From contig CADBKZ010000004.1 of NCBI GenBank assembly GCA_902795355.1, forward strand, positions 65,029 through 129,028: a stretch of 64,000 bases of DNA, written 5' to 3'. The notes below the pieces were generated by a model. It was not told the DNA's origin. It was given only the letters and a program-made list of their open reading frames with translations, and made no database searches. Shown one piece after another: positions 11 through 48,483 of the stretch; the first letter of the stretch is position 1, and every line of letters starts with the position of its first letter. Origin of the DNA: an uncultured Ruminococcus sp. GTDB taxonomy: Bacteria; Bacillota; Clostridia; Oscillospirales; CAG-272. Position numbers and translations under genes: made by a program.

Positions 11-1222
11 TTGCTGTTTCTGGTCCTTCAGTTTGTAACATGGGTGGTCTACTTTATTGTCACCTTGGTGCTGCACGGTCCCATTAAACGCCGCGAGGAG
101 CGGAGACATTTCCGCTTTATCCGCGCGCTGGTTTACGGCGCGGCGCAGTTCCTGATCATTCTGTTTGTGTTTTTAACGCCGCTGTTCTGCTACTTGCAAT
201 TCGCGCCCGCCATGGTACGCGCCGCAACGGACGTAGAGCTGATCCCCGCGGAAGCGCAGGCAACCGTGAACGAAGAGGAGATCCAGAAGGTTGCGGACAG
301 CCCCGTTTTCCGCCTTTACGGGAAATTGGGCGGCGATAAGCTGAACCGGTCGCTGACCAAGATTACGGTGAGCGGAGAGACCACCTATCTCGCCGCCGAA
401 ATGGATTCCATCGCTTCCCTGACGGGAGACGTTGTGACGTTGAAAAAAGCGGGAGACATTGAAAATTGGAGCGCGAAAGAAGCGGAAGCGATCAAGTCGC
501 TTGCCGCGTCGCTCGGCAACTCCAAGATCATCTCCGCGCTGATTGGCGACGTGGTTGGAAACGCCACCGGAAAATGGATCGCGGGCGAGGCGTTCTTCGG
601 AATGGAGAAACCGTCCGTCGGCGAGTACCTCGATCCGCTCTTCAACCTGCTGTTGCAGGATCTGAACAAGGATTCCCAAAGCGTAAACGCCATTTCGGAC
701 GATCTGGAAACCATTGGAGACATGCTTTCCATCCTGATCCGCGACGGCGTTCTGACCAAGCTCAACGACACCGACAACCTTGTGGACCTGCTGACGAAGG
801 GCACCACGGTCAAGGATATTATCGACGTTCTCAAAGCCAACGAAACCATGAGCAATCTGGTTGACGAGTTTACCAAGATCGGTCTGAAAGCCGTTGGCGA
901 CATGCTGCAGTTGCCCGAGATCAACCTTGACGACTACGAGCAGTTCTTCGACGAAGTGACCGATAAGCTCAACGAGGTTCTTCAGGACATCGACTTCTCC
1001 GATCAGGAGAGCGTCGACGCGGCCATCGATAACCTGACCGAGAAGCTCCAGACCGAGCTTGCAAACGCAAATGTGGACGTGGAACTCAACGATGAAATCA
1101 TCGACCTTTACTCCGATGTTATCATCGAACAGTTCAAGGACAAAGAGGGCGAAGTCACAATCGACGACCTCAAAGAGTTGTTCGGCATTGTCGAAACTCC
1201 CGCGTCCGTCCCCGCGGAATAA
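11..1222 (+). CDS. Hypothetical membrane-anchored acidic protein (5' end possibly outside window)
   Basis: Longest ORF here and it opens at the window edge. Two N-terminal hydrophobic helices (VTWVVYFIVTLVL, FLIILFVFLTPLFCYL) are followed by ~330 aa of D/E/L/I-rich helical sequence. Overlapping opposite-strand ORFs are Arg/Ser-rich junk. No family recognised. Confidence 0.5.
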   Translation: MLFLVLQFVTWVVYFIVTLVLHGPIKRREERRHFRFIRALVYGAAQFLIILFVFLTPLFCYLQFAPAMVRAATDVELIPAEAQATVNEEEIQKVADSPVFRLYGKLGGDKLNRSLTKITVSGETTYLAAEMDSIASLTGDVVTLKKAGDIENWSAKEAEAIKSLAASLGNSKIISALIGDVVGNATGKWIAGEAFFGMEKPSVGEYLDPLFNLLLQDLNKDSQSVNAISDDLETIGDMLSILIRDGVLTKLNDTDNLVDLLTKGTTVKDIIDVLKANETMSNLVDEFTKIGLKAVGDMLQLPEINLDDYEQFFDEVTDKLNEVLQDIDFSDQESVDAAIDNLTEKLQTELANANVDVELNDEIIDLYSDVIIEQFKDKEGEVTIDDLKELFGIVETPASVPAE

Positions 1223-8453: not shown

Positions 8454-9098
8454 CTATACCGTTTTCGGCAATTCGGTAATCAACCCCGTCAAATGCCCGT
8501 CGTAACCGTACTGCACAATGCGCGGGGCGTCGGAATCGCGGTATTCCACCGTTGTTACCGACGCGTTCGCGCTCCACGGAACCTTGGCAACCTCTTTCAG
8601 CGAAAGCCCGTTCCAATGGCACCAAAGCACGCGCAAAGGGGTTGCGTGGCTGAACAGCGCAACGCATTTCCCGCGGTTTTCCGCAACGATCCGGTCCACG
8701 CAGGCGGCCGCGCGCCGATATACATCCGCAACCGATTCTCCCAAAGGGCAGGAAGCGTTTCCAAGGTCGTGGAGCCATGTGTCAAATTCCCGCGGATAAC
8801 GCGCGGCAATCTCCCCAAACTCCATCCGTTCCCATGCCCCCGCTTGGATTTCCCGCAGGTCGGCCGCGGGAAGTATGGGAAGCCCGTGGTCTTCGGCCGT
8901 CGGCTCCGCGGTTTGCATGGCGCGGCGCAGATCGCTCGCGTAAATCCTGTCAATTGCGGCGCGGCGCAGGTATTCCGCGGTTCGCGCCGCTTGGCGAAGC
9001 CCGAGCGCGGTCAGCGGAACGTCGCTTTGCCCCGTAAAGGTGTTGGAAAGGTTGCTTTCGCTCTGTCCGTGGCGAACAAAAATCAGCGTGGTTTTCAT
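8454..9098 (-). CDS. Histidine phosphatase family protein (phosphoglycerate mutase-like/CobC-like)
   Basis: LIFVRHGQSESN (RHG catalytic motif) and FSHATPLR (second His). ATG at 9098 overlaps the stop of the upstream MFS gene (ATGA). Confidence 0.85.
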   Translation of the reverse strand: MKTTLIFVRHGQSESNLSNTFTGQSDVPLTALGLRQAARTAEYLRRAAIDRIYASDLRRAMQTAEPTAEDHGLPILPAADLREIQAGAWERMEFGEIAARYPREFDTWLHDLGNASCPLGESVADVYRRAAACVDRIVAENRGKCVALFSHATPLRVLWCHWNGLSLKEVAKVPWSANASVTTVEYRDSDAPRIVQYGYDGHLTGLITELPKTV

Positions 9099-10300
9099 AA
9101 CGATTTCTCCTTTTTTCGCCCGATGCGCGTCAGCAGGAACAGGGCGACGAGTTCCAGAATCGGGAAGACCAGCGCAAACAGGAATCCGCGCCGCAAATTT
9201 CCCCCGAAAACGTCCGAGATCCAACCCGACGCCGTCGGCCCCGCGAGGCATCCCAGATCCCCCGCCAGCGCGAGAAGGGCGAACATGGATATTCCGCCGG
9301 CGGGAATCCGCTCGGCCGCCAAAGAGAGGGTTGCCGGCCAGAAAATGCCAACCGAAACGCCGCAGAGCATGCAGCCGAGCAGCGCGGCCCAAGCGGGGGC
9401 CGCCAACGCCGCGAGCAGATAGGCCACGATGCAGAGCGAGGCAAAAAACGCCATTTGCGCGGTTATGCGGATTTTTTCCGAGAGCCGACCGCCGAATACG
9501 CGCGTTAACGCCATGGCAAGCGCAAACAGCCCCGGGCCGAGCATGTCGCCCATGGTTTTGGGGATTCCGAGGCCCGATTCGGCAAAGCTCGATGCCCATT
9601 GGCTCATGCATTGTTCGGCCGCGCCGGCGCAGACCATCATCAGCAGGAACAGCAGGAACACGGGCATGGAAAAGAGCTTTTTCGCGGTCATGCCGCTCTC
9701 TTTTACGGTCGGTAACCGGTAAATCGGAACCACGCAGAACGCAACCAAGCCAACCAGCGGGATGATCGCCCAGATCAGGGGCAGATAATGCCAATAGGCG
9801 TCAATATCGAGCAGCAGGAACCAAAGGCCCGAAAGAAAGACCACGGCGGCCTGCCCCCAGCTGTAAAAGGAGTGGAGCATGGTCATGTTGCGGCTTTTCC
9901 CCTCGGTGGGGCAGGCTTCCACCAGCGGGCTGATCATCACTTCAATCAACCCGCCGCCGATCCCCGTGAGCGAAACCGAGATCATCAGAGCAGCAAACGG
10001 GTTCATAAGCCTCGGCAGAACCGAGAGGCAGACCAACCCGAGGAAAGCGCAAAAGTGCGCCAACAGGACTTGTCCGCGCACCGAAAAACGGTCGCCGACG
10101 CGCGAGGCGAGAAAGTCGATCGCGAGCTGAATCGAAAAATTTACGGCAATCAGGCCGCTCAATTGCGAAAGCGTAATTCCGAATTGCCGCTGAAACAGAA
10201 CGAAAAACAGCGGCGCGAGGTTGATGCTGATCGCCTGAACGACATAGCCGTTATAGCAGGCGAGAACGGTGGAACGGTAGGAAAGGGACGAACTGCGCAT
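9095..10300 (-). CDS. MFS transporter
   Basis: About 12 hydrophobic segments and ~400 aa. Start MRSSSLSY with GGAGGT 5 nt upstream. A consensus promoter lies upstream. Confidence 0.8.
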   Translation of the reverse strand: MRSSSLSYRSTVLACYNGYVVQAISINLAPLFFVLFQRQFGITLSQLSGLIAVNFSIQLAIDFLASRVGDRFSVRGQVLLAHFCAFLGLVCLSVLPRLMNPFAALMISVSLTGIGGGLIEVMISPLVEACPTEGKSRNMTMLHSFYSWGQAAVVFLSGLWFLLLDIDAYWHYLPLIWAIIPLVGLVAFCVVPIYRLPTVKESGMTAKKLFSMPVFLLFLLMMVCAGAAEQCMSQWASSFAESGLGIPKTMGDMLGPGLFALAMALTRVFGGRLSEKIRITAQMAFFASLCIVAYLLAALAAPAWAALLGCMLCGVSVGIFWPATLSLAAERIPAGGISMFALLALAGDLGCLAGPTASGWISDVFGGNLRRGFLFALVFPILELVALFLLTRIGRKKEKSL

Positions 10301-10350
10301 GATAACCTCCAAAGAGAAAGCCCGCGGAAAAAGTTTCCGCAAACGATATT

Positions 10351-11024: not shown

Positions 11025-12419
11025 TTACGCGCCCACTTCATACCCGGGGTATTGGCCGTCCCGCAGGCGATTTCCGAAATAGAGGGCGTCGTAAAGCGAG
11101 GTCAGGGCGGTCCATGTTGCGGCTTCGGCAACGCCGGTTTGCGTCAGCCCTTCCAATCGCTGAAAAGCGAGGATCGCCTGCTGGGTCTGCGTTCCGAAAT
11201 AGCCGGTGGGCGTAACGGACGGAATTTCCGGATAATAGGCGGAAACATAATTCAGGTATTCCTGCAAGGTGCGCACCGATTCGGATTCGCTCCCGAGCCG
11301 CAGGGGAACGCCGCCGTAGGGAACCGTTTCCCCCTCGGTATATGTGGACGGAATGGTTCTCGCAATGCCGAGGTAAGCGTTGTAAATGCGGTACCATGTG
11401 GCGGGGCCGACGATCCCGTCCACGGGAAGCCCGAACGTTCGCTGCACCTCTTCCACGGCGCTGCGGGTCAGGGGACCGAACACGCCGTCCGGCCGGAGCG
11501 ACGGAATGGTGTTGTAGTAGTTGGAAAGATAGTCGATATAGTATTGCAGGTTGTAAACTTCCACCCCTGTGGAGCCCTCGGCGAGCGCGCTCGGCAATTC
11601 CTGCGCAATTTCTTCCAGCCGGATCCCCTCGGAAGAAAGATCGGAGAGCCGCTTAACGCTGGTATAAAGGCTCTGAATGGCATACCATGTGGCTTTTCCG
11701 ACAATTCCGTCCGCCGTAAGACCGAACACTTCCTGAAAGCGTTTCACGGCGGCTTCGGTGTCGGTGCTGAAAATGCCGTCGGTCAGCGCGATCTTCGGAA
11801 TGGACGGAAAGTTGTTGGAAATGCGGTTGAGCCGCAGTTGAACGGTGCGAACGTTGTTGCCGAAGCTCCCGAGGCTCAAAGGAAACGGCGGCGCGCTTTC
11901 GGCGGGGCTTGCAATGGGGGTATTTTCCATCAGAACAATGTTGTCCCCATAGTAATAGCGAAGAATATCAAAGGGGGAATACCCGCTGTTCGCCAGCGAA
12001 ACGCTGCCCCATTGGGAAAGGCCGTTGCAGGTTACTTCAATTCCGTCGCAGAACTGCGCAAAGAGCGGCTCCACGCTGTTTTCGCGGCGGATATACGTGG
12101 TAAACAGATCGCCGACCAATTGGCGGACGTTCTCGAAAATACCGCGGCCGCTGACGTATGCCTGATCGTAGGCGGTGGAGTTGGTAATGTCAAAATCGTA
12201 GCCGCGGGAGCGGTAATATTCGGTGTAAACACGGTTCAGCGCAAAGGAGACCTGCGCGATGATGTTGGCGCGCAGGGCGTTTTCGGGCCATGTGGGGTAC
12301 AGCTCGCTGGAAGCCACGTTCGCAATGTAATGAATGAAAGGAACCGTAACGTTCTCGGCGGGGGCGGAAGGCGGGCCGAGATGAACGGTGATGTTTTCGG
12401 GAATGGTTGGGAGCGCCAT
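11025..12419 (-). CDS. sleC: SleC-type spore cortex-lytic enzyme: catalytic domain plus three PG-binding repeats, lacking an N-terminal propeptide
   Basis: ITVHLGPPSAPAENVTVPFIHYIANVASSELYPTWPENALRANIIAQVSFALNRVYTEYYRSRGYDFDITNSTAYDQAY matches my memory of the clostridial SleC catalytic core. Three PG_binding_1-like repeats follow. Confidence 0.75.
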   Translation of the reverse strand: MALPTIPENITVHLGPPSAPAENVTVPFIHYIANVASSELYPTWPENALRANIIAQVSFALNRVYTEYYRSRGYDFDITNSTAYDQAYVSGRGIFENVRQLVGDLFTTYIRRENSVEPLFAQFCDGIEVTCNGLSQWGSVSLANSGYSPFDILRYYYGDNIVLMENTPIASPAESAPPFPLSLGSFGNNVRTVQLRLNRISNNFPSIPKIALTDGIFSTDTEAAVKRFQEVFGLTADGIVGKATWYAIQSLYTSVKRLSDLSSEGIRLEEIAQELPSALAEGSTGVEVYNLQYYIDYLSNYYNTIPSLRPDGVFGPLTRSAVEEVQRTFGLPVDGIVGPATWYRIYNAYLGIARTIPSTYTEGETVPYGGVPLRLGSESESVRTLQEYLNYVSAYYPEIPSVTPTGYFGTQTQQAILAFQRLEGLTQTGVAEAATWTALTSLYDALYFGNRLRDGQYPGYEVGA

Positions 12420-12423
12420 GCCG

Positions 12424-12870
12424 TCAGAATCCCCCTTCGTTGATCTCGTCGGTCTCGGTGTCAAAATAGCGGGTTTCGGGCGCGGGCAGGCCGCTTCCGT
12501 TCTCGGGGAGCGGAATCAGGACCACGGGTTGGATCACGGTGATCCCCTCGTAAACGGGAATGCCGACGTGAACCTGATCGTAGTAGCCCTCGTGGCGGAC
12601 TTCCGCTTGGTAGAGCGCATAGGGGCGGCCGGAATCGGGGCTGCCCGCATTGGAACAGGGCGGGGACGGCAGGCGGATGGTGGGGGTGTTCCCGTCGCTG
12701 TTCGTCGTCAGCGTAACAATCAGCGTTCCCTTGGTTTCGGGCGGCGGATCCACGGGATCATAGGTCAGAATATCCACTTGCGCGTTTTCCAGCGGGATCG
12801 CGCCGCGGGCGGTTGTTACCTGCACCACCAGAAAACCGTAGCAGGAGTCGGTTGCGGGCTCGTTGTTCAT
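12424..12870 (-). CDS. SleC pro-domain-like protein (carboxypeptidase-regulatory-like beta-sandwich), separate ORF
   Basis: GFLVVQVTTARGAIPLENAQVDIL ... SDGNTPTIRLPSPP ... RPYALYQAEVRHEGYYDQVHVGIPVYEG resembles the N-terminal pre/pro region of SleC zymogens. RBS GAAAGGAGATTTC. Its stop lies 4 nt before the sleC-like ATG. Confidence 0.55.
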   Translation of the reverse strand: MNNEPATDSCYGFLVVQVTTARGAIPLENAQVDILTYDPVDPPPETKGTLIVTLTTNSDGNTPTIRLPSPPCSNAGSPDSGRPYALYQAEVRHEGYYDQVHVGIPVYEGITVIQPVVLIPLPENGSGLPAPETRYFDTETDEINEGGF

Positions 12871-12991: not shown

Positions 12992-13107
12992 AACATCGTA
13001 TGCCGCCGTTTTTCTGTTTTTGGCAGAAAAACAGCTTTTCAAAAGCGCAAAACCGCTTCAAAACCTGCAAAAATAACCGATTTTGGAACCGGAAAGGAGA
13101 ACGACCG

Positions 13108-15096
13108 ATGGATGCGTTCCGCCTCAAAAGCGAATATACGCCAACCGGCGACCAACCGTCCGCAATCGCCGCGCTCTGCCGCGGCTTGCGCGAGGGGGAG
13201 CGGATGCAAACGCTCCTCGGCGTTACCGGCTCGGGCAAAACCTTTACCATGGCGAACGTAATCGCCGAAATGAACCGCCCCACCATCATTCTGGAACCGA
13301 ACAAAACCTTGGCGGCGCAGGTCTGCTCCGAAATGCGGGAGTTTTTCCCCGAGAACGCGGTGGAGTTTTTCGTATCCTACTATGATTACTACCAGCCCGA
13401 GGCCTATATCCCCGGGAAGGATATGTATATTGAAAAGGACGCTTTGGTGAACGACGAGATCGACCGCCTGCGCCATAGCGCAACCAGCGCGCTGTTCGAG
13501 CGGCGGGATGTGATCATTGTGGCGTCGGTCTCCTGCATTTATTCGCTCGGCGACCCCTCGGAATACAGCGGGCTTGTGGTTGCCGTTCGGACAGGGATGC
13601 AGATGAGCCGCGATATTTTCATTCGCAAGCTGGTGGCCAACAGCTATAACCGCAACGATTTTTCGTTGGCGCGTGATTGCTTCCGCGTCAACGGCGACAC
13701 GGTGGAAGTAATCCCGTCCAACATGAGCGAAAGCGCCATTCGCGTGGAGTTCTTCGGCGACGAGATCGACCGCATCACGGAGATCAATATCGTTACGGGA
13801 GAGGTCAAACGTCTGCTTTCCTACGCGGCCATTTACCCCGCGACGCACTATGCCGTTTCGGATGAAAAACGAGAGGCCGCCCTTGCCGAAATCGAGCGGG
13901 AAATGGAAGAACGGGTGCGTTTTTTCGAGTCCGAAAACAAGCTGATTGAAGCGCAGCGCATTCGGGAGCGCGTGAAGTACGACTTGGAAATGCTCCGCGA
14001 GATCGGCTTTTGCTCCGGCGTGGAAAACTATTCGCGCGTGTTGGCCGGCCGACCCGCGGGGTCAACGCCGTTTACCCTGCTCGATTATTTTCCGGACGAT
14101 TACCTGATGTTTATCGACGAATCGCACGTCACCGTTCCGCAGGTGCGCGGCATGAGCGGGGGCGATACGGCGAGAAAGAAAAACCTGATCGACTACGGCT
14201 TCCGTCTCCCCTCGGCCTACGATAACCGCCCGCTCTATTTCAAGGAGTTTGAGCAGAGCATTCACCAAGCGGTGTTCGTCAGCGCCACCCCCGGGGACTA
14301 TGAGGAAGCGCACGCCGAACAGGTGGTGGAGCAGATCATTCGCCCAACGGGCTTGCCGGACCCCGAAATTGAGGTGCGGCCGATTGAAGGGCAGGTGGAC
14401 GACCTGCTCGGGGAGATCCGCGTTCGGGCAAAGAAGGGCGAGCGCGTGCTTGTTACCACGCTGACCAAGAAAATGGCCGAGGAATTGACCGATTATCTGG
14501 AAAACAACGGCGTGAAAGTGCGGTATATCCACTACAATGTGGAAACCATCGAGCGCATGGAGATCATCCGCGATCTGCGGCTCGGCGTGTTCGACGTTCT
14601 GGTCGGCATCAATCTGCTGCGCGAGGGGTTGGATATTCCCGAGGTTTCGCTGGTCGCCATTCTCGACGCGGATAAAGAGGGCTTCCTGCGCGCGGAACGG
14701 TCGCTGATCCAAACGGTCGGCCGCGCGGCGCGGAACGCCGAGGGCAAGGTGATTATGTATGCCGACACAATAACGGGTTCCATGCGCGGCGCCATTCTGG
14801 AAACCAACCGCCGCCGGAGCATTCAGCTGGAATATAACCGCGCGCACGGGATCGTTCCGAAAACGGTTATCAAGGGCGTGCGCGACGTTATTGAGATCGG
14901 AAGTCGGGAAGATCATAAATCCCGCAAGGGAGAGAAGGGCGGCGTCAACCGCAAGCTGAACGCGAGCGAGCGCGAAAAGCTGATCGAAACGCTGACGCGC
15001 GAGATGAAAACCGCCGCTTCCAAGCTCGAGTTCGAGCAGGCCGCGTACCTGCGCGACCGCATTAAAAAGATTCGGGAAGGCAAGGTTGACCATTGA
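13108..15096 (+). CDS. uvrB: Excinuclease ABC subunit B
   Basis: [26 protein letters not shown] and helicase motifs. C-terminal UVR motif [13 protein letters not shown]. Confidence 0.97.
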
Positions 15097-15137
15097 CCGA
15101 GGCCGAACCCCTTTGATTCAGATTCAGGAGTAACAAA

Positions 15138-18005
15138 ATGCCAAAGAAAATTCAGATCCGCGGCGCGCGGGTCCATAACCTCAAAAACATCAATGTTGAC
15201 ATTCCACGCGATCAATTGGTCGTTTTAACCGGCCTTTCGGGTTCGGGGAAATCGTCGCTCGCGTTCGACACGATCTATGCCGAAGGACACCGGCGTTTTG
15301 TCGAGTCGCTCTCGTCCTATGCCAGAATGTTCCTCGGGCAGTTGGATAAACCCGATCTCGATTCCATCGAGGGCCTTTCGCCCGCCATCGCCATCGACCA
15401 AAAGACCACGTCCAAAAACCCGCGTTCCACCGTTGGAACGGTCACGGAAATTTATGATTATCTCCGCCTGCTCTACGCGCGCATCGGGATTCCGCATTGC
15501 CCCGTTTGCGGCAAGGAGATCCGCCAGCAGACCACCGACCAGATCATTGACCGCATCCTGACGCTTCCCGAAGGCACGCGCTTTCTGATTCTCGCCCCCG
15601 TGGTCCGCGCGCAGAAGGGTATGCACGAAAAAATCTTTGCCGACGCGAAGAAGCGCGGGTATGTCCGCGTGCGCGTAGACGGCAACATGTACGATTTATC
15701 CGAGCAGATCTCGCTCGATAAAAACAAGAAACACAACATTGAAATCGTTGTGGACCGCCTTGTGATCCGCGAGGGGATCGAGGCGCGCCTTTCGGATTCG
15801 GTGGAAAACGCGCTTGCCGTTGCGGACGGGCATCTGATCGTTCAAACCGCCCCGCGCGAGGGCGAGGGGGACGCGCAGGAGCTGGAATTTTCGCAGTCCT
15901 ACGCCTGCGAGGAACACGGCATTTCGTTCGGCGAGCTGGAACCCCGCATGTTTTCGTTCAACAATCCCGTCGGGGCCTGCCCGCATTGCGCGGGGCTGGG
16001 GGAAATGCAGCGGGTCGCCGTCAATCGCCTGATCCCCAATAAAAAGCTCTCCCTGCGCGGGGGTGCCATCGCCGTCAACGGCTTTAAGACTTTGGAAGAA
16101 GAAAGCTGGAACGGCCCGCTGTTCGCCGCTGTGGGCGAGCGGTTCGGGTTTACCATGGATACGCCCGTCGAGCAGTTCACGCCCGAGCAGTACCACCTGC
16201 TGATGTACGGAACAGGCGACGAAATTTACGATATTCACCGCTGGTTCGGCAGGGAAGAACACCACCAGAAAACCAAGTTCGACGGCCTCGTTGCCATGAT
16301 CGAAAATCGCGCGCAAACATGGGGCAACGAGTATTACGACCAATTCATTGAAGCCGCGCCTTGCCCCGAATGCGGCGGCCGACGCCTTTCTCCCACCATG
16401 CTGGCCGTTACCGTCGGGGGGCTGAACATTCATGAATTTTGCTCGCTCTCGGTGGAAAAAGCATTGGATTTCGTGAACCGTATGGAGCTGAACGACACCG
16501 AGGCGAAGATTGCGGCCGAAATTCTGAAAGAGATTCGCTCGCGGCTCGGTTTTTTGGTCAGCGTGGGTCTCGGCTATCTTTCGCTTGCCAACAAATCGGG
16601 AACGCTTTCGGGCGGCGAGGCGCAGCGCATCCGCTTGGCCACGCAAATCGGCTCCTCGCTTGTCGGCGTGCTGTATATCCTCGATGAACCGAGCATCGGC
16701 CTGCACCAGCGCGATAACTCCAAGTTGATCGCAACCCTGAAACGCCTGCGCGACCTCGGCAACACCGTTATTGTGGTGGAACACGACGAGGAGACGATGG
16801 AGAACGCCGACTACCTGATTGACATCGGCCCCGGGGCGGGGATCCACGGCGGCGAGGTTGTCTCGTCCGGCACCCCCGCCGAGGTGATGGCGGACCGACA
16901 TTCGATTACGGGCGATTACCTTTCCGGCCGTCGCCGCATCCCCGTCCCCGCGGAACGTCGGGCGGGGAACGGCGCGTATCTGCGCGTCCGCGGCGCGGCG
17001 CAAAACAACCTGAAAAAGCTGAATGTGGATATTCCGCTCGGGTGTTTCGTGTGCGTAACGGGCGTTTCCGGCTCGGGAAAATCCTCGCTGGTCAACGACA
17101 TTCTGTATCCCGTTCTGGCCGAGCAGCTCAACCGCGCCGTTACCTACGCGGGCGCATACGATGAAATTACGGGCGTGGAAAACCTCGATAAGGTGATCTG
17201 CATCGATCAAAGCCCCATCGGCCGAAACCCGCGCTCCAATCCCGCCACTTATACGGGGTTGTTCAACGACATTCGCGACCTGTTTGCGCAAACCAAGGAC
17301 GCCAAGGCCAAAGGATTTACGGCGGGGCGGTTCTCGTTCAACGTCAAAGGCGGCCGGTGCGAGGCCTGCGAGGGCGACGGCGTAAAAAAGATCGAAATGC
17401 ACTTTTTGCCCGACGTGTACGTCACTTGCGACGTTTGCAAGGGCAAACGCTACAACCGCGATACGCTCGACGTGCATTATAAGGGGAAGAATATTTCCGA
17501 TGTGCTGGAAATGACCGTGGAAGAGGGTGTGAGCTTTTTCGACGGCCTGCCCGCCATCCAGCGCAAGCTCCAAACGCTTTACGACGTTGGGCTGGGCTAT
17601 GTAAAAATCGGGCAACCTGCCACCACGCTCTCGGGCGGCGAGGCGCAGCGCGTGAAACTCGCAACCGAGCTTGCAAGGCGCGGAACGGGCAAAACCATTT
17701 ATATCCTCGATGAACCCACCACGGGGCTGCACACGGCCGATGTGGAAAAACTGCTCGAAGTGTTGCAGCGGCTTTGCGACGGCGGCAATACGGTGTTGGT
17801 AATCGAGCATAACCTTGACGTAATCAAATCCGCCGATTGGATTATCGATCTCGGCCCCGAGGGCGGCGAGGGCGGCGGAACGCTGATTGCCGAGGGAACG
17901 CCCGAAGAGGTTGCGGCCGTGGAACGTTCCTACACGGGTCAGTATCTCAAAAAATGGCTGGCGCGCGCAAAAGCGGCACCGGTTCCGGCAACGGATCGGA
18001 GCTGA
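15138..18005 (+). CDS. uvrA: Excinuclease ABC subunit A
   Basis: Two ABC modules (GLSGSGKSSLAFDT, GVSGSGKSSLV; LSGGEAQR x2). Zinc fingers CPVCG, CPECGG and CEACEGDG. Confidence 0.97.
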   Translation: MPKKIQIRGARVHNLKNINVDIPRDQLVVLTGLSGSGKSSLAFDTIYAEGHRRFVESLSSYARMFLGQLDKPDLDSIEGLSPAIAIDQKTTSKNPRSTVGTVTEIYDYLRLLYARIGIPHCPVCGKEIRQQTTDQIIDRILTLPEGTRFLILAPVVRAQKGMHEKIFADAKKRGYVRVRVDGNMYDLSEQISLDKNKKHNIEIVVDRLVIREGIEARLSDSVENALAVADGHLIVQTAPREGEGDAQELEFSQSYACEEHGISFGELEPRMFSFNNPVGACPHCAGLGEMQRVAVNRLIPNKKLSLRGGAIAVNGFKTLEEESWNGPLFAAVGERFGFTMDTPVEQFTPEQYHLLMYGTGDEIYDIHRWFGREEHHQKTKFDGLVAMIENRAQTWGNEYYDQFIEAAPCPECGGRRLSPTMLAVTVGGLNIHEFCSLSVEKALDFVNRMELNDTEAKIAAEILKEIRSRLGFLVSVGLGYLSLANKSGTLSGGEAQRIRLATQIGSSLVGVLYILDEPSIGLHQRDNSKLIATLKRLRDLGNTVIVVEHDEETMENADYLIDIGPGAGIHGGEVVSSGTPAEVMADRHSITGDYLSGRRRIPVPAERRAGNGAYLRVRGAAQNNLKKLNVDIPLGCFVCVTGVSGSGKSSLVNDILYPVLAEQLNRAVTYAGAYDEITGVENLDKVICIDQSPIGRNPRSNPATYTGLFNDIRDLFAQTKDAKAKGFTAGRFSFNVKGGRCEACEGDGVKKIEMHFLPDVYVTCDVCKGKRYNRDTLDVHYKGKNISDVLEMTVEEGVSFFDGLPAIQRKLQTLYDVGLGYVKIGQPATTLSGGEAQRVKLATELARRGTGKTIYILDEPTTGLHTADVEKLLEVLQRLCDGGNTVLVIEHNLDVIKSADWIIDLGPEGGEGGGTLIAEGTPEEVAAVERSYTGQYLKKWLARAKAAPVPATDRS

Positions 18006-21076: not shown

Positions 21077-21895
21077 ATGAATTTACCAAACCAAATCATC
21101 CACCAAACCATTCCCCTCGCCGCGGGAACGGATGTCCGCATCCTTTCATGGAACATCCTCTCGGAAGAGCTTTCCCCCATCGCTCCCGACATTCGCGAGC
21201 GGATCGACCGCATTGCCGGAACCGTTCGCGCGCTTGCGCCGGACGCCATGGGCATTCAGGAAATTTCCGAAAGCGGCTATGCGCTGTTTGCCGAGAAATT
21301 GCCCGAGTATGTGTTTACCAACCCGAAAACCGCGGCGGGCGAATATAGCTTTACGGGGGTTGCCTACCGCCGCGACCGCTATTTGCTCACGGCCTCGGGC
21401 ATTGAAAATTTCGACCGCGGGAACGCCCGCATCCGCCTGATGAATTGGATTCATCTGGAAGCCGTCGAAGGCGACCGCAAATTCACCCTTGTCAGCACGC
21501 ATTGGGATCGCCATGCGCGCAACCGCCCCGCCGATTCGGACCAGATGGCGCGCTATGTTCTTTTGCTGACGGCGCGTTTCGGCGACCCCGTAATCTGCAC
21601 GGGCGATTTCAACACGCGGGAGAACGCGGAAATTTTCCAATCGTTTCTTTCTGTTTCGGGGCAGAGGGACGCCAAATATCTCGCCCCCTCGGTGGTAAAC
21701 CTTTGCTTTACGGGGCATCCCGTCGGTTCGTTTGTTCCCGAAAGCGAGGAAGAAACGTCCATCGACCACATCACGGTGGCGGATGGAATCCGCGTCCTGC
21801 AATATGAACAAATGATCAACCAAACGGTAGTGGACGTCAGCGACCATTTTCCCGTATGCGCCGATCTTCGCTTCCCGCAAGGGGAGATAAGATAA
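21077..21895 (+). CDS. Endonuclease/exonuclease/phosphatase family protein (no signal peptide)
   Basis: ILSWNIL, GIQEI, STHW, TGDFN, VSDHFP. Paralogous to the C-domain of the preceding gene (about 30% identity by eye). Confidence 0.8.
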   Translation: MNLPNQIIHQTIPLAAGTDVRILSWNILSEELSPIAPDIRERIDRIAGTVRALAPDAMGIQEISESGYALFAEKLPEYVFTNPKTAAGEYSFTGVAYRRDRYLLTASGIENFDRGNARIRLMNWIHLEAVEGDRKFTLVSTHWDRHARNRPADSDQMARYVLLLTARFGDPVICTGDFNTRENAEIFQSFLSVSGQRDAKYLAPSVVNLCFTGHPVGSFVPESEEETSIDHITVADGIRVLQYEQMINQTVVDVSDHFPVCADLRFPQGEIR

Positions 21896-21918
21896 ATTCA
21901 AATGGAAAAGAAAGGAGA

Positions 21919-23403
21919 ATGATTTCCATGAGATTACCCGTTCGACGATGGCTTTGCGTTGCGTTTGCGCTTCTGTTTGCGGTATCCGCCTTTGCGGGAT
22001 GCGGGAAGAAGCCAAAAGAAACGGCGGAGTCATCCCAAACAACCGAGCCCGTAACCAAAATGGAGTGGGGGGACGATCTGCCCTCGTCGCTCGATTTCGG
22101 CGGCACGGATTTCCATGTTTATGCGTGGCAGGAAACGCAGGAATCCGATTGGCAATCCGAAATGAGCTCGGACATTATCAACCAAGCGGTGTGGAGGAGC
22201 CGCGAGGAGGTGGCGGACCGCCTGAACGTTTCGTTTGACATTTCGTTCACCCCCGGAAACTGGGATAACCGCAACACCTTTGTTTCCAACCTCAAAACCT
22301 ACATGATGAGCGGCATGCAGTTCGACCTTGTCGGGCAGTATACGCCAACCGCGGCCGTTGGGGCAATGGAAGGGCTGTATACCGACCTTTCCGCGCTCCC
22401 GTACCTGAATTTCCATTCGGTGTATTGGCCCGGGAACTTCCTCGAATCCTGCAACATCGGCAACCGCGTGTATTTCTGCTCGGGGGATATCACGCAGTCG
22501 CTTATCACGCAGCTCGGCGTTATGTATATCAACCTCGATCTTTGGGAGGACATGGGCATTTCGGAAAACATCTATGAATTGGTGGAATCCCGCGAATGGA
22601 CCATGGAAACCATGCAGTCGCTCCTGCTCGGCCGCATTGGAATCTCGGACGACGTTGCATCCCAGAAATACGGCCTGCAAATGGAAGGGCGCATCGTGTA
22701 CGATAACCTCTTCTATGCCGCGGGGCTGAATTGGGTCACGCACGAAGAGGACGGCACGCTCTTCCTTTCGGAAGAAATAACCGCAACAAAAGCGGGCGAA
22801 TGGTATGAAACCTGCCATAAGCTCCTGTGGGAGAACGCCGACGTTTGCTCCCAGGACGACCCGCGTTACGGAGCGAACGACCCGCGTTACGGCATTACCA
22901 TTGCGGATACGTTCATGGCGGGCAAATCCATCGCGTTCATGGCGTTGAACCTGAACAGCGCAAAAACCTATGTCCGCGACGCGTCGTTCGATTTTGCGGT
23001 GGTTCCGTACCCGCTCTATAACAGCGAGCAAACCGACTATCATTCCATAACGGGGTACAGCGTTTCCATGTTCAGCGTACCAACAACGTTCCAAAGCGCG
23101 TCCATGTCGGGCGCGGTGCTGGAAGCGTTGGGTTCGTCGGGCTACCGGAACATCACGCCCAAGGTATACGACCAATCGTTCCGTCAGCGTTTCCTGCAAA
23201 CCGAGGAAAACGCGCGGATGCTCGATCTGATCCACGATTCCGTAACCTATGATACGGGCCGCATCTTCGCCGACGACATTGCCGTTTTCAACATGTATCG
23301 CAACGCGTTTTATAACACCTATTCATGGACGACGCTTTACACCGGCCGCCATGAAACATGGGAAGCGAACGTTGAAAAAGTGAACAACAAGCTCGGCGGT
23401 TAA
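21919..23403 (+). CDS. ABC-transporter extracellular solute-binding lipoprotein (large family-1 type), orphan
   Basis: AAAGGAG RBS. Signal plus lipobox LLFAVSAFAGCGKK. About 495 aa, with composition typical of LplA-like sugar-binding proteins. No permease or ATPase genes adjacent. Confidence 0.75.
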   Translation: MISMRLPVRRWLCVAFALLFAVSAFAGCGKKPKETAESSQTTEPVTKMEWGDDLPSSLDFGGTDFHVYAWQETQESDWQSEMSSDIINQAVWRSREEVADRLNVSFDISFTPGNWDNRNTFVSNLKTYMMSGMQFDLVGQYTPTAAVGAMEGLYTDLSALPYLNFHSVYWPGNFLESCNIGNRVYFCSGDITQSLITQLGVMYINLDLWEDMGISENIYELVESREWTMETMQSLLLGRIGISDDVASQKYGLQMEGRIVYDNLFYAAGLNWVTHEEDGTLFLSEEITATKAGEWYETCHKLLWENADVCSQDDPRYGANDPRYGITIADTFMAGKSIAFMALNLNSAKTYVRDASFDFAVVPYPLYNSEQTDYHSITGYSVSMFSVPTTFQSASMSGAVLEALGSSGYRNITPKVYDQSFRQRFLQTEENARMLDLIHDSVTYDTGRIFADDIAVFNMYRNAFYNTYSWTTLYTGRHETWEANVEKVNNKLGG

Positions 23404-24202: not shown

Positions 24203-25765
24203 ATGAAAAAAGCGTTTATTCTGATTCTGTCGGTCGCAATGCTTCTCTCCTGTTTTATCCCTGTTTGTGCCAGCGCAGAGGAGCCGACGGCAATCTCAAC
24301 TCGCGAGCAGTTTGAAGCAATTACTTCAACGGGCAACTATTATCTCACCGACGATATTGATTTCGAAGGGAAGGTCTACTCCACCTATGTTGCTCCCTGC
24401 GAGGACGATGCCAACAAACAATTCAAAGGCACTCTTGATGGCAGAGGACACACGATTCACAATTTTTCAATTTCCACATCGGAAGCAACCGGCGGTATTT
24501 TCAAGGATACCGCGAATGCAACGATTACCAACCTTAACATTGGAACCCAATCCAATCCCGTTTCTATTACGGGTGCGGCTACAACAACGGCTGTTGGAAC
24601 GATTTCCAGCGCGGCATACGGCCCTAACGTTTCCAATGTAACCGTTTGGGCTAACATTTCGGTAACAGGCGTTACATCATCCGGCGGTTCCTATGGCGGA
24701 TTTTTTGGAACACATAATAATATCAACGTAACAAACTGTGTTATGAACGGCTCTGTTTCCGTAAGCACTACTGCAAATGATATTTTTGCAGGCGGTTTTT
24801 CGGGCAAAACCCAAAGACAATGGCCGTATTACACCAATTGTATCAACAATGCGGATGTTACGGTTGTTTCCTGCGCGCGAACCGGATATGTCGGCGGTAT
24901 CGTCGCCTTTGCCACCACTGCAAATAGTTACACCCCTACCATGACCTTTACGGGATGTATCAACAATGGGACTTTGGATACCAGCGGGGCAAAGAGAATG
25001 AATCGTTGCGGCGGTATCGTTGGCGATAATCAAGGCCACCAAAATACGGTTATCACAAACTGCTTTAACTTCGGAACTTTGAATGGCCGTACAACCGCGA
25101 ATGCAAATAATGGTGTTGGCGGCATGATTGGTTATGCTTCTACTGCCGTTTCCATTACAGGGTGTGCCAACTATGGTACATTCAATGCGGCAACCGATGA
25201 TTGCGGAGCAATATATGGAAACGGAGCTGGAACGATTACCGCTTCCAATAACTTTGATCGCTCCGGCACGCTCGATGTCGGCGACGTCAGCGCGAGCGTA
25301 AAAGTCAAAGGCGTGCAGTATACGGCGGTGAACGAGCATTACAAGGCGACCCCCGAAGCCGAGGAAACGTCCGTGTTTGATATTCGCTTTGTGGGTACCG
25401 TGGATTCGCTGGAATATGCCAAAGTCGGGTTCCTTGTGGAAGTCTACTACACCGCGGACGGCGAGGTGCAAAACCGCTCCGTTCCCGTGGAATGCAAGCA
25501 TGTTTATGATTCCATCTATGCCACCGTTGGCGAAACGGCCGAGGAAATCGACGTAACCGACCTTGGCGAAACGGCGGGCGAGGCCTACATTGTGGCTCTT
25601 TCGGTCAACGCCGTTCCCGCAACCGCCGCGGCGGGCACCGTAACCTTTATCTTCCGCGCGTTCGCCGAGGACGCCGAGGGCGAAGCAATATACGGAAATG
25701 CCGCTATGTATGCGTTCCAAGCGGGCAGCCTTGTATTTTCCAGCGCGGTTCCTTGCAGTCTTTAA
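24203..25765 (+). CDS. Secreted GLUG-motif repeat protein
   Basis: Signal peptide MKKAFILILSVAMLLSCFIPVCASA. N-terminal I.T.EQF..I...GNYYLTDDIDF...FKGTLDGRGHTIHNF module. Repeated GG(I/F/M)(V/I/S)G units (GGFFG, GGFSG, GGIVA, GGIVG, GGMIG). Confidence 0.7.
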   Translation: MKKAFILILSVAMLLSCFIPVCASAEEPTAISTREQFEAITSTGNYYLTDDIDFEGKVYSTYVAPCEDDANKQFKGTLDGRGHTIHNFSISTSEATGGIFKDTANATITNLNIGTQSNPVSITGAATTTAVGTISSAAYGPNVSNVTVWANISVTGVTSSGGSYGGFFGTHNNINVTNCVMNGSVSVSTTANDIFAGGFSGKTQRQWPYYTNCINNADVTVVSCARTGYVGGIVAFATTANSYTPTMTFTGCINNGTLDTSGAKRMNRCGGIVGDNQGHQNTVITNCFNFGTLNGRTTANANNGVGGMIGYASTAVSITGCANYGTFNAATDDCGAIYGNGAGTITASNNFDRSGTLDVGDVSASVKVKGVQYTAVNEHYKATPEAEETSVFDIRFVGTVDSLEYAKVGFLVEVYYTADGEVQNRSVPVECKHVYDSIYATVGETAEEIDVTDLGETAGEAYIVALSVNAVPATAAAGTVTFIFRAFAEDAEGEAIYGNAAMYAFQAGSLVFSSAVPCSL

Positions 25766-25795
25766 CCCCGTATCGTGAAAAGGAGGAATTTTCAG

Positions 25796-25924
25796 ATGAA
25801 ACATTATCAAACCCCCGATATGGAGTTGATTTCCATTCTCCAAAACGATATTCTCACCTATTCCTACCAAGCCGGAGAAATCGGCGACGGAGATGTTGTG
25901 AATTTCTTTGATGTGTTCGAATAA
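25796..25924 (+). CDS. Candidate 42-aa acidic peptide (MKHYQTPDMELISILQNDILTYSYQAGEIGDGDVVNFFDVFE)
   Basis: Below the 60-aa track cutoff. Strong AGGAGG sits 9 nt upstream of the ATG. It fills the gap between two same-strand genes. No homolog recognised. Confidence 0.35.
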   Translation: MKHYQTPDMELISILQNDILTYSYQAGEIGDGDVVNFFDVFE

Positions 25925-25943
25925 CCGAAAAGGAGGGATTCCT

Positions 25944-26321
25944 TTGAAGAAATTTTTGATCCTTGCGGCGTTGATCCTGACCGCGGTTTGCCTGCTCGCT
26001 TCCTGCGGCGGCAAGACCGGCGGCGCGGAAACGGCTTCCGCCGAGGAAAGCGGTACCGCGGAGCCGGAGAGCGAAACCACGCGTGCGCGCGTGACCCACT
26101 CCACGCTCCCCGCCATCACCACCAACGAGGGGAATGAACCGTCCGGCTCGTCAACGGCGGGGAACGTTACCACCCAGCCGGAAAAGAGAACCACCGCTTC
26201 GGTGGAGATCATCACCGACGGTTTCTTCGTCCCCGAACGCTCCACGGAAGAGGGCGCGAGCCTGTTTGTTACCGAGGACGCACGCGAGTATGAAACCTAC
26301 CCGTTGATCGGTTTGAATTAA
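25944..26321 (+). CDS. Small lipoprotein
   Basis: TTG start 6 nt after AAGGAGGG. LKKFLILAALILTAVCLLASCGG lipobox. Low-complexity T/S/E linker, then a ~45-aa C-terminal module. Confidence 0.6.
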   Translation: MKKFLILAALILTAVCLLASCGGKTGGAETASAEESGTAEPESETTRARVTHSTLPAITTNEGNEPSGSSTAGNVTTQPEKRTTASVEIITDGFFVPERSTEEGASLFVTEDAREYETYPLIGLN

Positions 26322-32806: not shown

Positions 32807-33427
32807 TTATTTGTTGATAATGGTAACGCCGGCGGGGGTGATTCCCGTGGTGGAGTACACAATCTCGTTGATCTGCGCGATCTGCGCGGGCTGTAACGCG
32901 TCCGATTTGACGATGATGCTCACGCTGTCCCCGTTGAGAACGGCAACGCATTGTTCAAACCCCTTGGCGGTGATCAGCGATTCCATGTCGGCCTCTTTGC
33001 GGATCTCTTCGGCAATGCCCGCAATGCCGGCGAGAGCTTCGTTTTTCATCTGCTCGCCCGCGTCAACGTTTTCCACTACCGATTGCAGAACTTCAAGGGC
33101 CTCGTCGCGGGCGCGCTGGCGGCTGACCTGCGTTGCGGAGAAGTAGGCGTCGGTGTTGTTGACCTGTGTGGCTTGGTCGGCGGTTTGCTCATCCGCAACG
33201 GTTCCGCTGGGCTGGTCGTAGCCTTGGTAGCCGGCGTTCTTGTTGCGGCTTCCGTTTGCGAAAAGCATCCAATTCAGCCAAACGGCGGCTCCGATCAGCA
33301 AAACCGACGCGGCGATAATGGCGTTGCGTTTGCCGATTTTTGCCATTACGCGGCGGAATTTATTCGGTTTCTTTTGCGGTTCTTCGGGTTGCGTCGTGGC
33401 GCTGATTTCGGTTTTTTCGGATTTCAT
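32807..33427 (-). CDS. spoIIIAH: Stage III sporulation protein AH
   Basis: Single TM. C-terminal YscJ/FliF-like region (DAYFSATQVSRQRARDEALEVLQ ... ITAKGFEQCVAVLNGDSVSIIVK). Last gene of the spoIIIA operon. Confidence 0.85.
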   Translation of the reverse strand: MKSEKTEISATTQPEEPQKKPNKFRRVMAKIGKRNAIIAASVLLIGAAVWLNWMLFANGSRNKNAGYQGYDQPSGTVADEQTADQATQVNNTDAYFSATQVSRQRARDEALEVLQSVVENVDAGEQMKNEALAGIAGIAEEIRKEADMESLITAKGFEQCVAVLNGDSVSIIVKSDALQPAQIAQINEIVYSTTGITPAGVTIINK

Positions 33428-33523
33428 GGGAAATTCCTCCTGTTTTTTCGTTTGGATTTGTTACACTATATGAAGCGGCTCGCGGGATTATTCCGTTTCC
33501 GAAAAAAAGATTCGGAACACCGT

Positions 33524-34030
33524 TTATTTTTTTGCTTCGGCAATGTAAATGCGGTTGCTCGGAACGCGGAATGCCGAGGAGAGCAGGGCGGTCAGTTCGC
33601 CGCGAATCGCAGGATCCCCGCCGCCGCGGCAGACCACGCCGATTCCCGCCACCTCGGGCGGTTTGCGCGAAATCACGAGAGCTTCGGCGTTCGATCCGCT
33701 CCCAACCGTGGCGTAAACCGTCGCGCCGTTTTTGGTTTCGGTGGCGTAAACCGTTTCAAATCCGCCCGCGAGCGTAACCGCCGCCCGAACGTTTCCCACC
33801 CCCGCAACCGAGGAGCAGAGCGCGGCGATCCGTTCTTCCAGCGAGGCGCGGTAGGCTTCCAGCTCTTCCTGCGTTGTTGGAATTTCCGCGCTCTCGGTCG
33901 CTTTTTTCGGCGAGGAGAACCACCCGCTGCCGATCAGGAGCAAGAGGATTCCCGCTCCCGCGCCGAGCAGAATGAACATGATTTTTTTGCGGCTTTGCTT
34001 TCCCGCGGGGGATCCGTCGTCGTTTTTCAT
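33524..34030 (-). CDS. spoIIIAG: Stage III sporulation protein AG
   Basis: TM segment then LEERIAALCSSVAGVGNVRAAVTL ... PPEVAGIGVVCRGGGDP. ATG at 34030 chosen (MKNDDG). Confidence 0.85.
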   Translation of the reverse strand: MKNDDGSPAGKQSRKKIMFILLGAGAGILLLLIGSGWFSSPKKATESAEIPTTQEELEAYRASLEERIAALCSSVAGVGNVRAAVTLAGGFETVYATETKNGATVYATVGSGSNAEALVISRKPPEVAGIGVVCRGGGDPAIRGELTALLSSAFRVPSNRIYIAEAKK

Positions 34031-34052
34031 AAGCGTTTTCCTTTCTTTTCCG

Positions 34053-34517
34053 TTATGCAATCGCGGTGTCGCAGGGACAGCCGAGCAGGTCGGCGACATA
34101 CTGTTCCAATTCGTGCGGATCGCGGAATCGCGCGCTTCCCGAAAGAATGAGCGTAATTTTCGAGGGGTGTGCTCCGGTTTCGTCCCAGCGAACGGCACAG
34201 GTAATTTCTTCCTGTTTCAGCGAAAATTTTTGCGCGATGTTTGCGCGCAGAGCTTGCGCGAAATAGGCGCGCGAGGCGTCGTCCAAAGCGGTTTGCGAGC
34301 GCGCCTCGAACGGTTCTTCCCCCGCGTTTTCCGAAAGGCGGTCGGGCAGATCGCGCAAACCTGCGAACGCGCGCGGCAGGGGCGCGGCGATTACGCAGAG
34401 AACCGCCAAGGAAGCGAGCAAACGAACATAGCGTCCCGCGCCTCCCTCGGGGGTCAGAACGCCGACCGCCGCCGCGAGGACCGCCGCGCCGAGCAGGGAG
34501 ATCAGATAAATTTTCAT
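34053..34517 (-). CDS. spoIIIAF: Stage III sporulation protein AF
   Basis: Two N-terminal TM helices, the right size and the right operon position. The sequence itself is weakly diagnostic. Confidence 0.7.
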   Translation of the reverse strand: MKIYLISLLGAAVLAAAVGVLTPEGGAGRYVRLLASLAVLCVIAAPLPRAFAGLRDLPDRLSENAGEEPFEARSQTALDDASRAYFAQALRANIAQKFSLKQEEITCAVRWDETGAHPSKITLILSGSARFRDPHELEQYVADLLGCPCDTAIA

Positions 34518-34526
34518 GTCCGCCCC

Positions 34527-35675: not shown

Positions 35676-36064
35676 CCCGCGAGCGCCAGCAGCTCTTTCG
35701 CTGTGGAGAGCAGTTCGCCGATCAGCGGAATGCAGAGCAACAGGATTTCCGTTTTCCCCGCAAGCTCCACCCCGCCCGCAACTCCGCTCTCGCCCGCATC
35801 GCGGCAAATGTCCGAACAGCATTGCGTCAGGATCGCAATACCCAACGCTTTGACGAGGAACGAGGCGTAGGAAGAAATTCCCGCGGCGTCGGTCAGCTCG
35901 CGCAGGTAGGAAACCAGCGGAGCCGCGATTGAGAGGATTGCGCCGGCAAAGAGGACCGTTAACGCCAACCGCAACAGGGGCAGAAAATCCGACTTCCATT
36001 GCTTGACGATCACGCAGAGGCAAACGCCCGTTACCGCAACGAGGCAAATTTTCGCGCTGTCCAT
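35672..36064 (-). CDS. spoIIIAD: Stage III sporulation protein AD
   Basis: 130-aa, 4-TM protein (MDSAKICLVAVTGVCLCVIVKQW...). Operon position fits. Confidence 0.85.
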   Translation of the reverse strand: MDSAKICLVAVTGVCLCVIVKQWKSDFLPLLRLALTVLFAGAILSIAAPLVSYLRELTDAAGISSYASFLVKALGIAILTQCCSDICRDAGESGVAGGVELAGKTEILLLCIPLIGELLSTAKELLALAG

Positions 36065-36073
36065 CCGTCGGTT

Positions 36074-36271
36074 TCATCCAACGCCGAAAACCGAGGTCAC
36101 AAAGTCGAACAGCTCGCGGATCTGGCTGACAAGGAGCATCAACGCAACCAGAATCCCCGCCAGCGTTACGAACATGGCTTGTTCATCCCGCCCCGTTTTG
36201 GAGAGGATCTGCGCGGCAACGGCAACCAGAATGCCGATGCCGGCAATTTTGATAATCAAAGAAATATCCAT
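36074..36271 (-). CDS. spoIIIAC: Stage III sporulation protein AC
   Basis: 65 aa, two TM helices: IIKIAGIGILVAVAAQILSKTGRDEQA. Confidence 0.85.
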   Translation of the reverse strand: MDISLIIKIAGIGILVAVAAQILSKTGRDEQAMFVTLAGILVALMLLVSQIRELFDFVTSVFGVG

Positions 36272-36307
36272 TTTCTTCCTTTTCCTTTGCTTTATCGGAA
36301 TTTGTTT

Positions 36308-48442: not shown

Positions 48443-48483
48443 GGCGGCCCCCTTTCTGCTGAAAACGATGTGATTAATTGCGA

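Follow-up and report, generated by a model that had tools for sequence, protein, structure and literature searches.

The locus described here raises the question of whether SleC, the spore cortex-lytic enzyme known from Clostridioides difficile and Clostridium perfringens as a single-chain zymogen, can be encoded by two separate genes, or whether its gene has merely been broken in the sequence at hand. The locus is found in a 64,000-nucleotide stretch of DNA from an uncultured Ruminococcus sp. (assembly GCA_902795355.1, contig CADBKZ010000004.1, positions 65,029 to 129,028), referred to here as the window, whose own coordinates are used throughout. An original prediction, made from the letters alone, had noticed three co-directional open reading frames (ORFs) on the minus strand, interpreted the first two as the N-terminal and catalytic parts of SleC, and left open whether the split between them was a homopolymer error, a genuine two-polypeptide enzyme or a case of slippage-dependent expression. 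The second of these readings is the one that received strong support: judged from sequence comparison, the split is a natural and conserved two-gene SleC, and neither a broken nor a frameshifted gene.

The layout of the locus was confirmed as it had been described. The first ORF (12870-12424, minus strand) runs from an ATG to a TGA stop codon (12426-12424), encodes a SleC pre/pro-like protein of 148 aa and is preceded by a Shine-Dalgarno (SD) sequence, AAAGGAG, read at 12885-12879 on the minus strand and also present in relatives. The second (12419-11025, minus strand; 464 aa from its ATG) encodes a SleC-type cortex-lytic enzyme, and the third (11009-10473, minus strand) a protein of 178 aa. 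A spacer of 4 nt (12423-12420) lies between the TGA of the small ORF and the ATG at 12419, and the two frames differ, the catalytic one being open 5' of its ATG as far as a TTG at 12464. At the crossing of the frames there is a run of five G residues (G5; 12435-12431, minus strand), located inside the SD-like sequence AAGGGGGA (12437-12430, minus strand), which falls within the last codons of the small ORF and ends 10 nt before the ATG; when one G is removed from the run, a single continuous frame results (...DEINEGDSDGMALPT...). The statement that the split occurs exactly at G5 is correct in that the run is at the junction, but the emphasis was misleading: the run is the SD of the catalytic gene and incidental to the split, since G5 is confined to the lineage of the window and its nearest relative (L005), and GAAGGAG or AGGAGG takes its place in the other loci. 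Because the last codons of the small gene hold the SD of the next one, members of the small-protein family often end in Gly-Gly. In five relatives (P0297, P0329, P0262, P0249 and P0254), the short tail of the small protein is replaced by low-complexity, acidic, Gly/Ser-rich C-terminal tails of 60-140 residues, and these too end in Gly-Gly codons, which are probably the SD of the following gene.

The SleC identity of both ORFs is solid. The 464-aa protein matched C. difficile SleC (PDB 9h68) over its residues 4-262 with a phmmer E-value of 2.5e-74 and with 94% of positions confidently aligned, the identity of the catalytic domains being roughly 50-60%, as estimated from this alignment. Its residues 1-185 (12419-11865, minus strand) correspond to a SpoIID-like catalytic domain (Pfam SpoIID, PF08486, 28 bits for a cut-off of 23), in which Glu39, within the sequence NVASSELY (codon 12305-12303, minus strand), is the putative catalytic residue according to what is known of the SpoIID family. 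The motif NV[AST]SSE[ILV][YF] was found in 79/79 related loci, and C. difficile SleC has NIASSEIY. The domain is followed, as had been proposed, by three PG_binding_1 repeats (11861-11100, minus strand; PF01471, E 5e-52; residues ~187-248, 278-346 and 373-440), a region that also matched peptidoglycan (PG)-binding domains in the PDB. In the 73 complete loci the catalytic orthologues are, without exception, 460-469 aa long; across loci they begin M-[AP]-x-[LT]-P-x-[IV]-P-E-x-I-T-V-H, and relatives are named 'spore cortex-lytic protein' by NCBI. A search for homologues of the catalytic domain gave mostly contig-end fragments from the same clade. By domain content and similarity, therefore, this protein is a SleC orthologue, for which a cortex lytic transglycosylase activity is predicted.

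The small protein was, in turn, related to the N-terminus of C. difficile SleC, both by a single-sequence search (E 1.4e-5 for 9h68) and, with a profile built from 33 members of its family, at an E-value of 7.8e-15, the identity over the pre-domain being 26-27%. Its AlphaFold2 (AF2) model, obtained with a multiple sequence alignment (MSA) of the family, reached a predicted local distance difference test score (pLDDT) of 78.9 and displayed β-sandwich strands over residues 10-117 (mean pLDDT of 10-residue blocks, 67-96) and a flexible C-terminal tail with one short strand at TRYFD. When this model was used in Foldseek, the top four fold matches in the PDB were chains A-D of 9h68 (E 2e-9, TMq 0.68, 128 columns). 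The protein can be divided, accordingly, into a β-sandwich 'pre' domain of the transthyretin/CarboxypepD_reg-like type (residues ~10-120; 12843-12511, minus strand) and the flexible tail (residues 121-148; 12510-12427, minus strand), the latter holding a propeptide-like conserved segment, R-Y-F-D (12471-12460), and then TETDEINEGGF. Pfam and NCBIfam scans of the 148-aa protein of the window gave no significant match, and none to PepSY; PF13620 (CarboxypepD_reg) was weakly matched by 11 of the 33 family members and by the N-terminus of C. difficile SleC, and DUF3869, a name used for SleC in a preprint, was not among the Pfam and NCBIfam matches of the family. In their sources, the homologues of the small protein are all called 'hypothetical protein' except for P0388, whose Joint Genome Institute name, 'energy-converting hydrogenase Eha subunit F', is evidently a mis-annotation.

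Several independent lines of evidence indicate that the split is real. Proteins of exactly 148, 464 and 178 aa are encoded by contigs of seven or more independent samples, and a near-identical variant was found in addition; the DNA of the junction, G5 included, was identical in eight independent assemblies, three of which represent strain variants bearing single-nucleotide polymorphisms (SNPs) elsewhere, one of these three with two substitutions beside the G5 run. In a word-indexed search, the homologues of the small ORF (40-99% identity) were stand-alone proteins of 121-160 aa in 73 out of 73 cases. At E<=1e-10, an exhaustive profile search over 1.84 billion representatives returned 2004 cluster representatives, among which some N-termini of canonical fused SleCs are to be expected; the best 150 of these 2004 were all short proteins or ended right after the domain, and the catalytic domain was present in 0/150. 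With a broader profile of the small protein, the best 120 matches (128-202 aa) were likewise all stand-alone, and the best ones were, among the matches listed, derived only from metagenome-assembled genomes (MAGs). The locus set comprised 80 species-level genomes, which are MAGs of uncultured Clostridia, Oscillospiraceae or Eubacteriales from gut or rumen, and one metagenome locus. In the 79 loci in which the contig extends beyond the small gene, the catalytic gene comes next, and the two are fused in none; among the 80 GTDB loci, the small gene is directly upstream of the catalytic gene in 78, and the other two are cut by contig ends. The geometry of the junction is free: in these 79 loci, the offset between the frames is 0, +1 or +2 in 23, 32 and 24 cases, respectively, the gap can be as short as -20 or as long as +286 nt, and the small gene stops at TGA (41), TAA (37) or TAG (1), the catalytic gene starting with ATG in 73/79 and having an SD-like motif upstream in 74/79. 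In two related genomes, L063 and L071, the spacers measure 286 nt and 104 nt, respectively, and physical separation of the gene pair is evidently tolerated. The spacer of L063 (4387-4673) is flanked by terminal inverted repeats of ~45 nt (attatagttt...gtgccctcatc / gatgagggcac...aaactataat), with the look of a miniature inverted-repeat transposable element (MITE). It is the sum of the identical junction in eight assemblies, the stand-alone homologues, the lack of fusion and the free junction geometry that leads us to regard the split as real.

Other explanations of the split were considered in the light of these data. Homopolymers are error-prone and the deletion of a single G restores a continuous frame, so that the true gene might have G4 and encode a fused pre-pro-SleC of ~610 aa; however, the G5 junction is shared by eight independent assemblies or runs, the three SNP-bearing ones included, relatives devoid of the G run have their split at this position too, with all three frame relations represented, and the fused form was seen, among the matches listed, in none of hundreds of homologues of the small ORF. 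A sequencing or assembly error, the first reading of the original prediction, is thereby refuted and deserves practically no weight. The overlap of the two frames across G5, with the catalytic frame open to 12464, would also permit programmed frameshifting or transcriptional slippage to produce a fused zymogen as the functional product. As a mechanism of the family this was refuted as well, because neither the slippery run nor the frame relation is conserved, all three stop types and spacers of up to 286 nt occur, and most loci provide the catalytic gene with an ATG and an SD-like motif of its own; it is thus judged very improbable, and low-level accidental slippage in the organism of the window alone, although conceivable, need not be invoked. 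That one base change would join the ORFs is also what would be expected if a fused sleC had recently been inactivated by a frameshift and were decaying, but both ORFs are intact, their GC content at third codon positions (GC3) is high (0.77 and 0.70, versus an overall GC of 0.57), and a huge family with 40-99% identity and invariant residues has kept the promoter, the SDs and the third gene, so that pseudogenisation can be set aside almost entirely. Finally, the lack of a Pfam or NCBIfam match for the window protein, together with the commonness of the β-sandwich fold, could suggest an unrelated neighbour, such as a β-sandwich protein of the coat or surface that is functionally unconnected with the lytic enzyme. 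This is highly improbable: by sequence, profile and fold, the best match is the N-terminus of SleC, and the small gene not only adjoins the catalytic gene in all but the two truncated GTDB loci, with tight or overlapping spacers, but also contains the SD of that gene.

Once the existence of two genes was accepted, the position of the boundary between them relative to the sites at which SleC is processed became of interest. In the preproSleC of C. difficile, YabG cuts after R119, as deduced from the N-terminus QSELI obtained by Edman sequencing, and in that of C. perfringens it cuts after R114 (PMC6464247). A hypothetical fusion of the small and catalytic proteins was aligned to 9h68, whose chain residue 58 is the native Met1 and in which C. 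difficile residues 120-132 are QSELIFDIGEHTL. In this alignment, residues 130 and 131 of the small protein flank the YabG site R119|Q120. The tails across the 79 loci share IQPxxLIPLPENG...[RI]-F-[FY]-E-x-E-N-P-x-L, and this motif aligns, with equal spacing, to I-F-D-I-G-E-H-T-L in the propeptide of C. difficile. From both alignments it follows that the 148-aa protein corresponds, as far as homology tells, to the SleC pre-domain together with a stretch equivalent to the first ~13 propeptide residues. The original proposal that this ORF resembles the SleC N-terminus was right, and the protein is more than the pro-domain of its original label. The remainder of the propeptide (C. difficile residues ~133-154, its C-terminal two-thirds) has no counterpart in the split pair, and the catalytic ORF begins, with its Met1, opposite native residues ~154-157 of C. 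difficile SleC. According to the work of Urakami (1999) and Okamura (2000), C. perfringens SleC is reportedly made of a pre region of 113 residues, a pro region of 35, a mature enzyme of 264 and a C-terminal pro region of 25. The mature N-terminus generated by Csp, which we take to lie 35 residues past the pre/pro cut, would then be found at about residue 155 in C. difficile. If this propeptide length holds, the gene boundary would coincide, within a few residues, with the Csp site, and the absent propeptide segment should include the Csp scissile bond.

The two genes are accompanied by further conserved elements. The σK consensus consists of AC at -35 and CATA---TA at -10, and a predicted mother-cell promoter of this type lies upstream of the small ORF at 12930-12904 (minus strand), with AC at 12930-12929, a 17-nt spacer and a -10 element, CATAGGAT, at 12911-12904. 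The pattern AC-N15-18-CATAnnnT was found upstream of the small ORF in 71 of 82 loci, compared with a mean of 3.8 and a maximum of 12 in shuffled sequences; it is located 40-50 nt before the ATG, with a spacer of 17 nt in 42 loci and of 16 nt in 22 (consensus AC-16/17-GCATAnaaTgaTA). Late mother-cell transcription of the operon is predicted on this basis, in line with the σK dependence that has been demonstrated for sleC in C. difficile (PMC3738446). The third gene starts 15 nt after the stop codon of the catalytic gene, and its product contains two PG_binding_1 domains (Pfam E 4.6e-29). In 71/73 loci a gene of this kind immediately follows the catalytic one, separated from it by -17 to +89 nt, and its product is mostly 172-188 aa long (~175). 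We know of no such partner in canonical sleC loci; consisting only of these two domains, the protein may act as an anchor in the cortex, as a competitor or as a scaffold. The operon ends after this gene, because the next one, encoding a major facilitator superfamily (MFS) transporter (9095-10342), has its own promoter, a perfect extended σ70 promoter (TTGACA-17 nt-TG-TATAAT, 12/12) at 10379-10351 on the minus strand.

The explanation that we find probable, although well short of certain, is that of a three-gene sporulation operon encoding a naturally split SleC, with a partner that would act in trans and activation that would proceed without the canonical Csp cut. The first two genes would be translationally coupled, so that both chains are made together, and the small protein would bind the enzyme non-covalently through its β-sandwich and the conserved F-F-E...L tail, much as the pre/pro region does within a single-chain zymogen. 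Its role would be to assist folding or to stabilise the enzyme and probably also to keep it latent in the dormant spore, activation at germination taking place by release or degradation of the small protein, or being controlled by the substrate or by location. Action in trans has precedents: sporulating cells remove the prepeptide of canonical SleC, which is thus already a separate chain in the mature spore (PMC3567191), and, according to the title of the work by Okamura et al. (2000), the prepeptide is said to be required for production of the active enzyme at germination. YabG processing of the pre/pro junction would be unnecessary for the split protein. A canonical Csp cut would be ruled out as the activating event because no covalent propeptide exists and the segment expected to include the scissile bond is absent, which makes the originally suggested activation without Csp cleavage plausible.

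A different view accepts the two genes and confines the small protein to the role of a folding chaperone or of a targeting or anchoring factor. Latency would then have another basis, for example a modified substrate, compartmentation, the PG-binding product of the third gene or a protease of the Csp type with a different target. The SleB and CwlJ enzymes of B. subtilis are stored in mature form, which was counted in favour of this view, as was the requirement for the C. perfringens prepeptide that is reportedly stated in the title just mentioned. Two further points that support it also belong to those weighing against a trans-acting latency factor. One is structural: when the two chains were joined and modelled with AF2 from an unpaired MSA, the domains were confident, but docking was not (predicted TM-score, pTM, 0.58; tail pLDDT <50), and the model fitted 9h68 only domain by domain (TM-score 0.41, root-mean-square deviation ~25 Å). 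The other is biochemical: full-length C. difficile SleC is active in vitro on cortex fragments, so that the pre/pro region may lack any inhibitory function, and GerS controls SleC activity downstream of propeptide removal (PMC4619724). On the other hand, the pro-form of C. perfringens is inactive until cleaved (PMC4619724), and the strong conservation of the propeptide-like F-F-E...L tail suggests a specific contact with the enzyme beyond transient folding; the chaperone-only role is, in our opinion, possible but doubtful. The proposal of a trans-acting partner and Csp-independent activation is also weakened by the fact that the position of the Csp cleavage hangs on the length of the C. perfringens propeptide, reportedly 35 residues, and that the assignment of the sigma factor, suggested by the promoter motif, relies on the consensus only. 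In agreement with the original prediction that the window contains no csp genes, the subtilisin-type catalytic motif (HGT...GTSxAxP), searched for by regular expression (regex), was absent from the window and from 624 kb of related flanks, a range to which the check for Csp and YabG is limited and a method that would miss pseudoproteases and other genome regions. In addition, the carriers are all uncultured MAGs, whose sporulation and germination are predicted from their genes.

With this proposal in mind, the split system can be compared with those already known. It shares with canonical SleC (C. difficile CD0551, PDB 9h68, and the C. perfringens enzyme) the β-sandwich pre-domain, a propeptide start in which I-F-D...L aligns with F-F-E...L, and the SpoIID-like catalytic domain with the NxASSE(I/L)Y motif, followed by PG_binding_1. 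In contrast, canonical SleC is one chain with one PG-binding repeat, whereas there are two polypeptides in the window and in 79/79 related loci, and the split system further has three repeats in the enzyme and a conserved extra gene with two PG domains. Maturation of the canonical protein is defined by YabG and Csp processing, while the split system has a covalent junction for neither, has no csp gene nearby within the range of the regex search, and has a catalytic chain that starts about where the mature enzyme is expected to start. The system is therefore a SleC orthologue without the defining single-chain pre-pro-zymogen feature. In Bacillus, the sleB-ypeB pair encodes a cortex-lytic transglycosylase with PG_binding_1 that is co-transcribed with a non-enzymatic partner, YpeB, which is needed for the stability or latency of SleB and is removed at germination. 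The likeness is one of outline, an enzyme with a co-transcribed partner, and not of homology: the Hydrolase_2 domain of SleB and the PepSY domains of YpeB are absent, the catalytic protein scores 97 bits against a cut-off of 236.5 for SleB (TIGR02869), and over the PG-binding repeats only, and, opposite to sleB-ypeB, the gene of the partner precedes that of the enzyme, expression being probably in the mother cell rather than in the forespore. That an N-terminal pro region can, as a separate chain, fold and inhibit its enzyme has been described for CspB and other subtilases (PMC7200643). The concept is the same in pro-domains of the subtilisin and α-lytic protease type that act in trans, but folds and enzymes are unrelated, and these pro-domains were separated experimentally or by autoprocessing, whereas the separation in split SleC is genetically encoded and conserved. 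The SpoIID/LytB lytic transglycosylases belong to the same superfamily as the catalytic domain (PF08486 above cut-off); nevertheless, the protein reaches only 33.6 bits versus 234.75 for SpoIID (TIGR02870) and 41 versus 83 for TIGR02669, so it is not an orthologue of these, lacks a membrane anchor and is much closer to SleC. Genes expressed by programmed frameshifting or slippage have a conserved slippery run and frame relation, neither of which is conserved here. The searchable literature yielded no account of a split SleC or of a family of stand-alone pre-domains, and in a survey preprint SleC is described only as a multidomain protein.

As for the surroundings of the operon, the divergent uvrB-uvrA genes lie upstream of it (13000-18005, plus strand), a neighbourhood also present in a relative with 72% identity, the Oscillospiraceae MAG SIG719 (L001/L085); in a more distant relative (L003) the neighbourhood is another one, and the operon moves as a three-gene unit. 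Farther away, Pfam matches revealed a spoIIIA operon on the minus strand (32807-37682), with Spore_III_AA (36771-37682), Spore_III_AB (36308-36925), Spore_III_AE (34527-36077) and SpoIIIAH (32807-33427), and the presence of these four genes implies that the organism has the core endospore machinery. The ORFs at 11-1222 (plus), 21856-23403 (plus), 24203-26245 (both strands) and 47762-49120 (plus) had no Pfam match at E<=1e-5; at 24.2-26.2 kb, the overlapping ORFs of ~520 aa on both strands have a low GC3 (0.52-0.56) and are of doubtful coding value. A scan of the whole window against Rfam gave no match.

Open questions in the field are by what means SleC stays silent in the dormant spore and what removal of its propeptide does, as illustrated by a pro-form that is inactive in C. 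perfringens and a full-length protein that is active in vitro in C. difficile (PMC4619724). A large natural family in which the two parts are made separately may amount to an experiment already set up by nature, from which the roles of prepeptide and propeptide in trans could be learned. Since gene fission and fusion are common, the finding is of moderate interest rather than astonishing; what makes it informative is that the boundary between the genes seems to imitate a site of protease processing and that the family is very large in uncultured spore-formers of the gut and rumen. In practical terms, the unannotated family of small proteins can now be annotated as 'SleC pre/pro-domain protein', and automated pipelines should leave the junction as it is and not 'repair' it as a frameshift. 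Csp proteases have been documented in Peptostreptococcaceae, Lachnospiraceae and Clostridiaceae (PMC7200643). As a tentative idea, for which the odds are rather unfavourable at present, an extensive uncultured clade of gut and rumen Clostridia (MAGs of the Oscillospiraceae/Ruminococcaceae type) could lyse its cortex without the step from Csp to SleC; its SleC would at no stage be a covalent zymogen but would be kept latent by the separate pre/pro protein, whose release or degradation would be the trigger. Within this idea, the two-chain state may even be ancestral, the fused zymogen processed by YabG and Csp in C. difficile and C. perfringens being a derived way to regain two chains. The family suggests, in this sense, that many commensal spore-formers of the gut and rumen germinate without canonical Csp cleavage of SleC, and such a Csp-independent germination would have to be considered both when responses to germinants are predicted and when the specificity of drugs that block germination through the Csp/SleC axis is judged.

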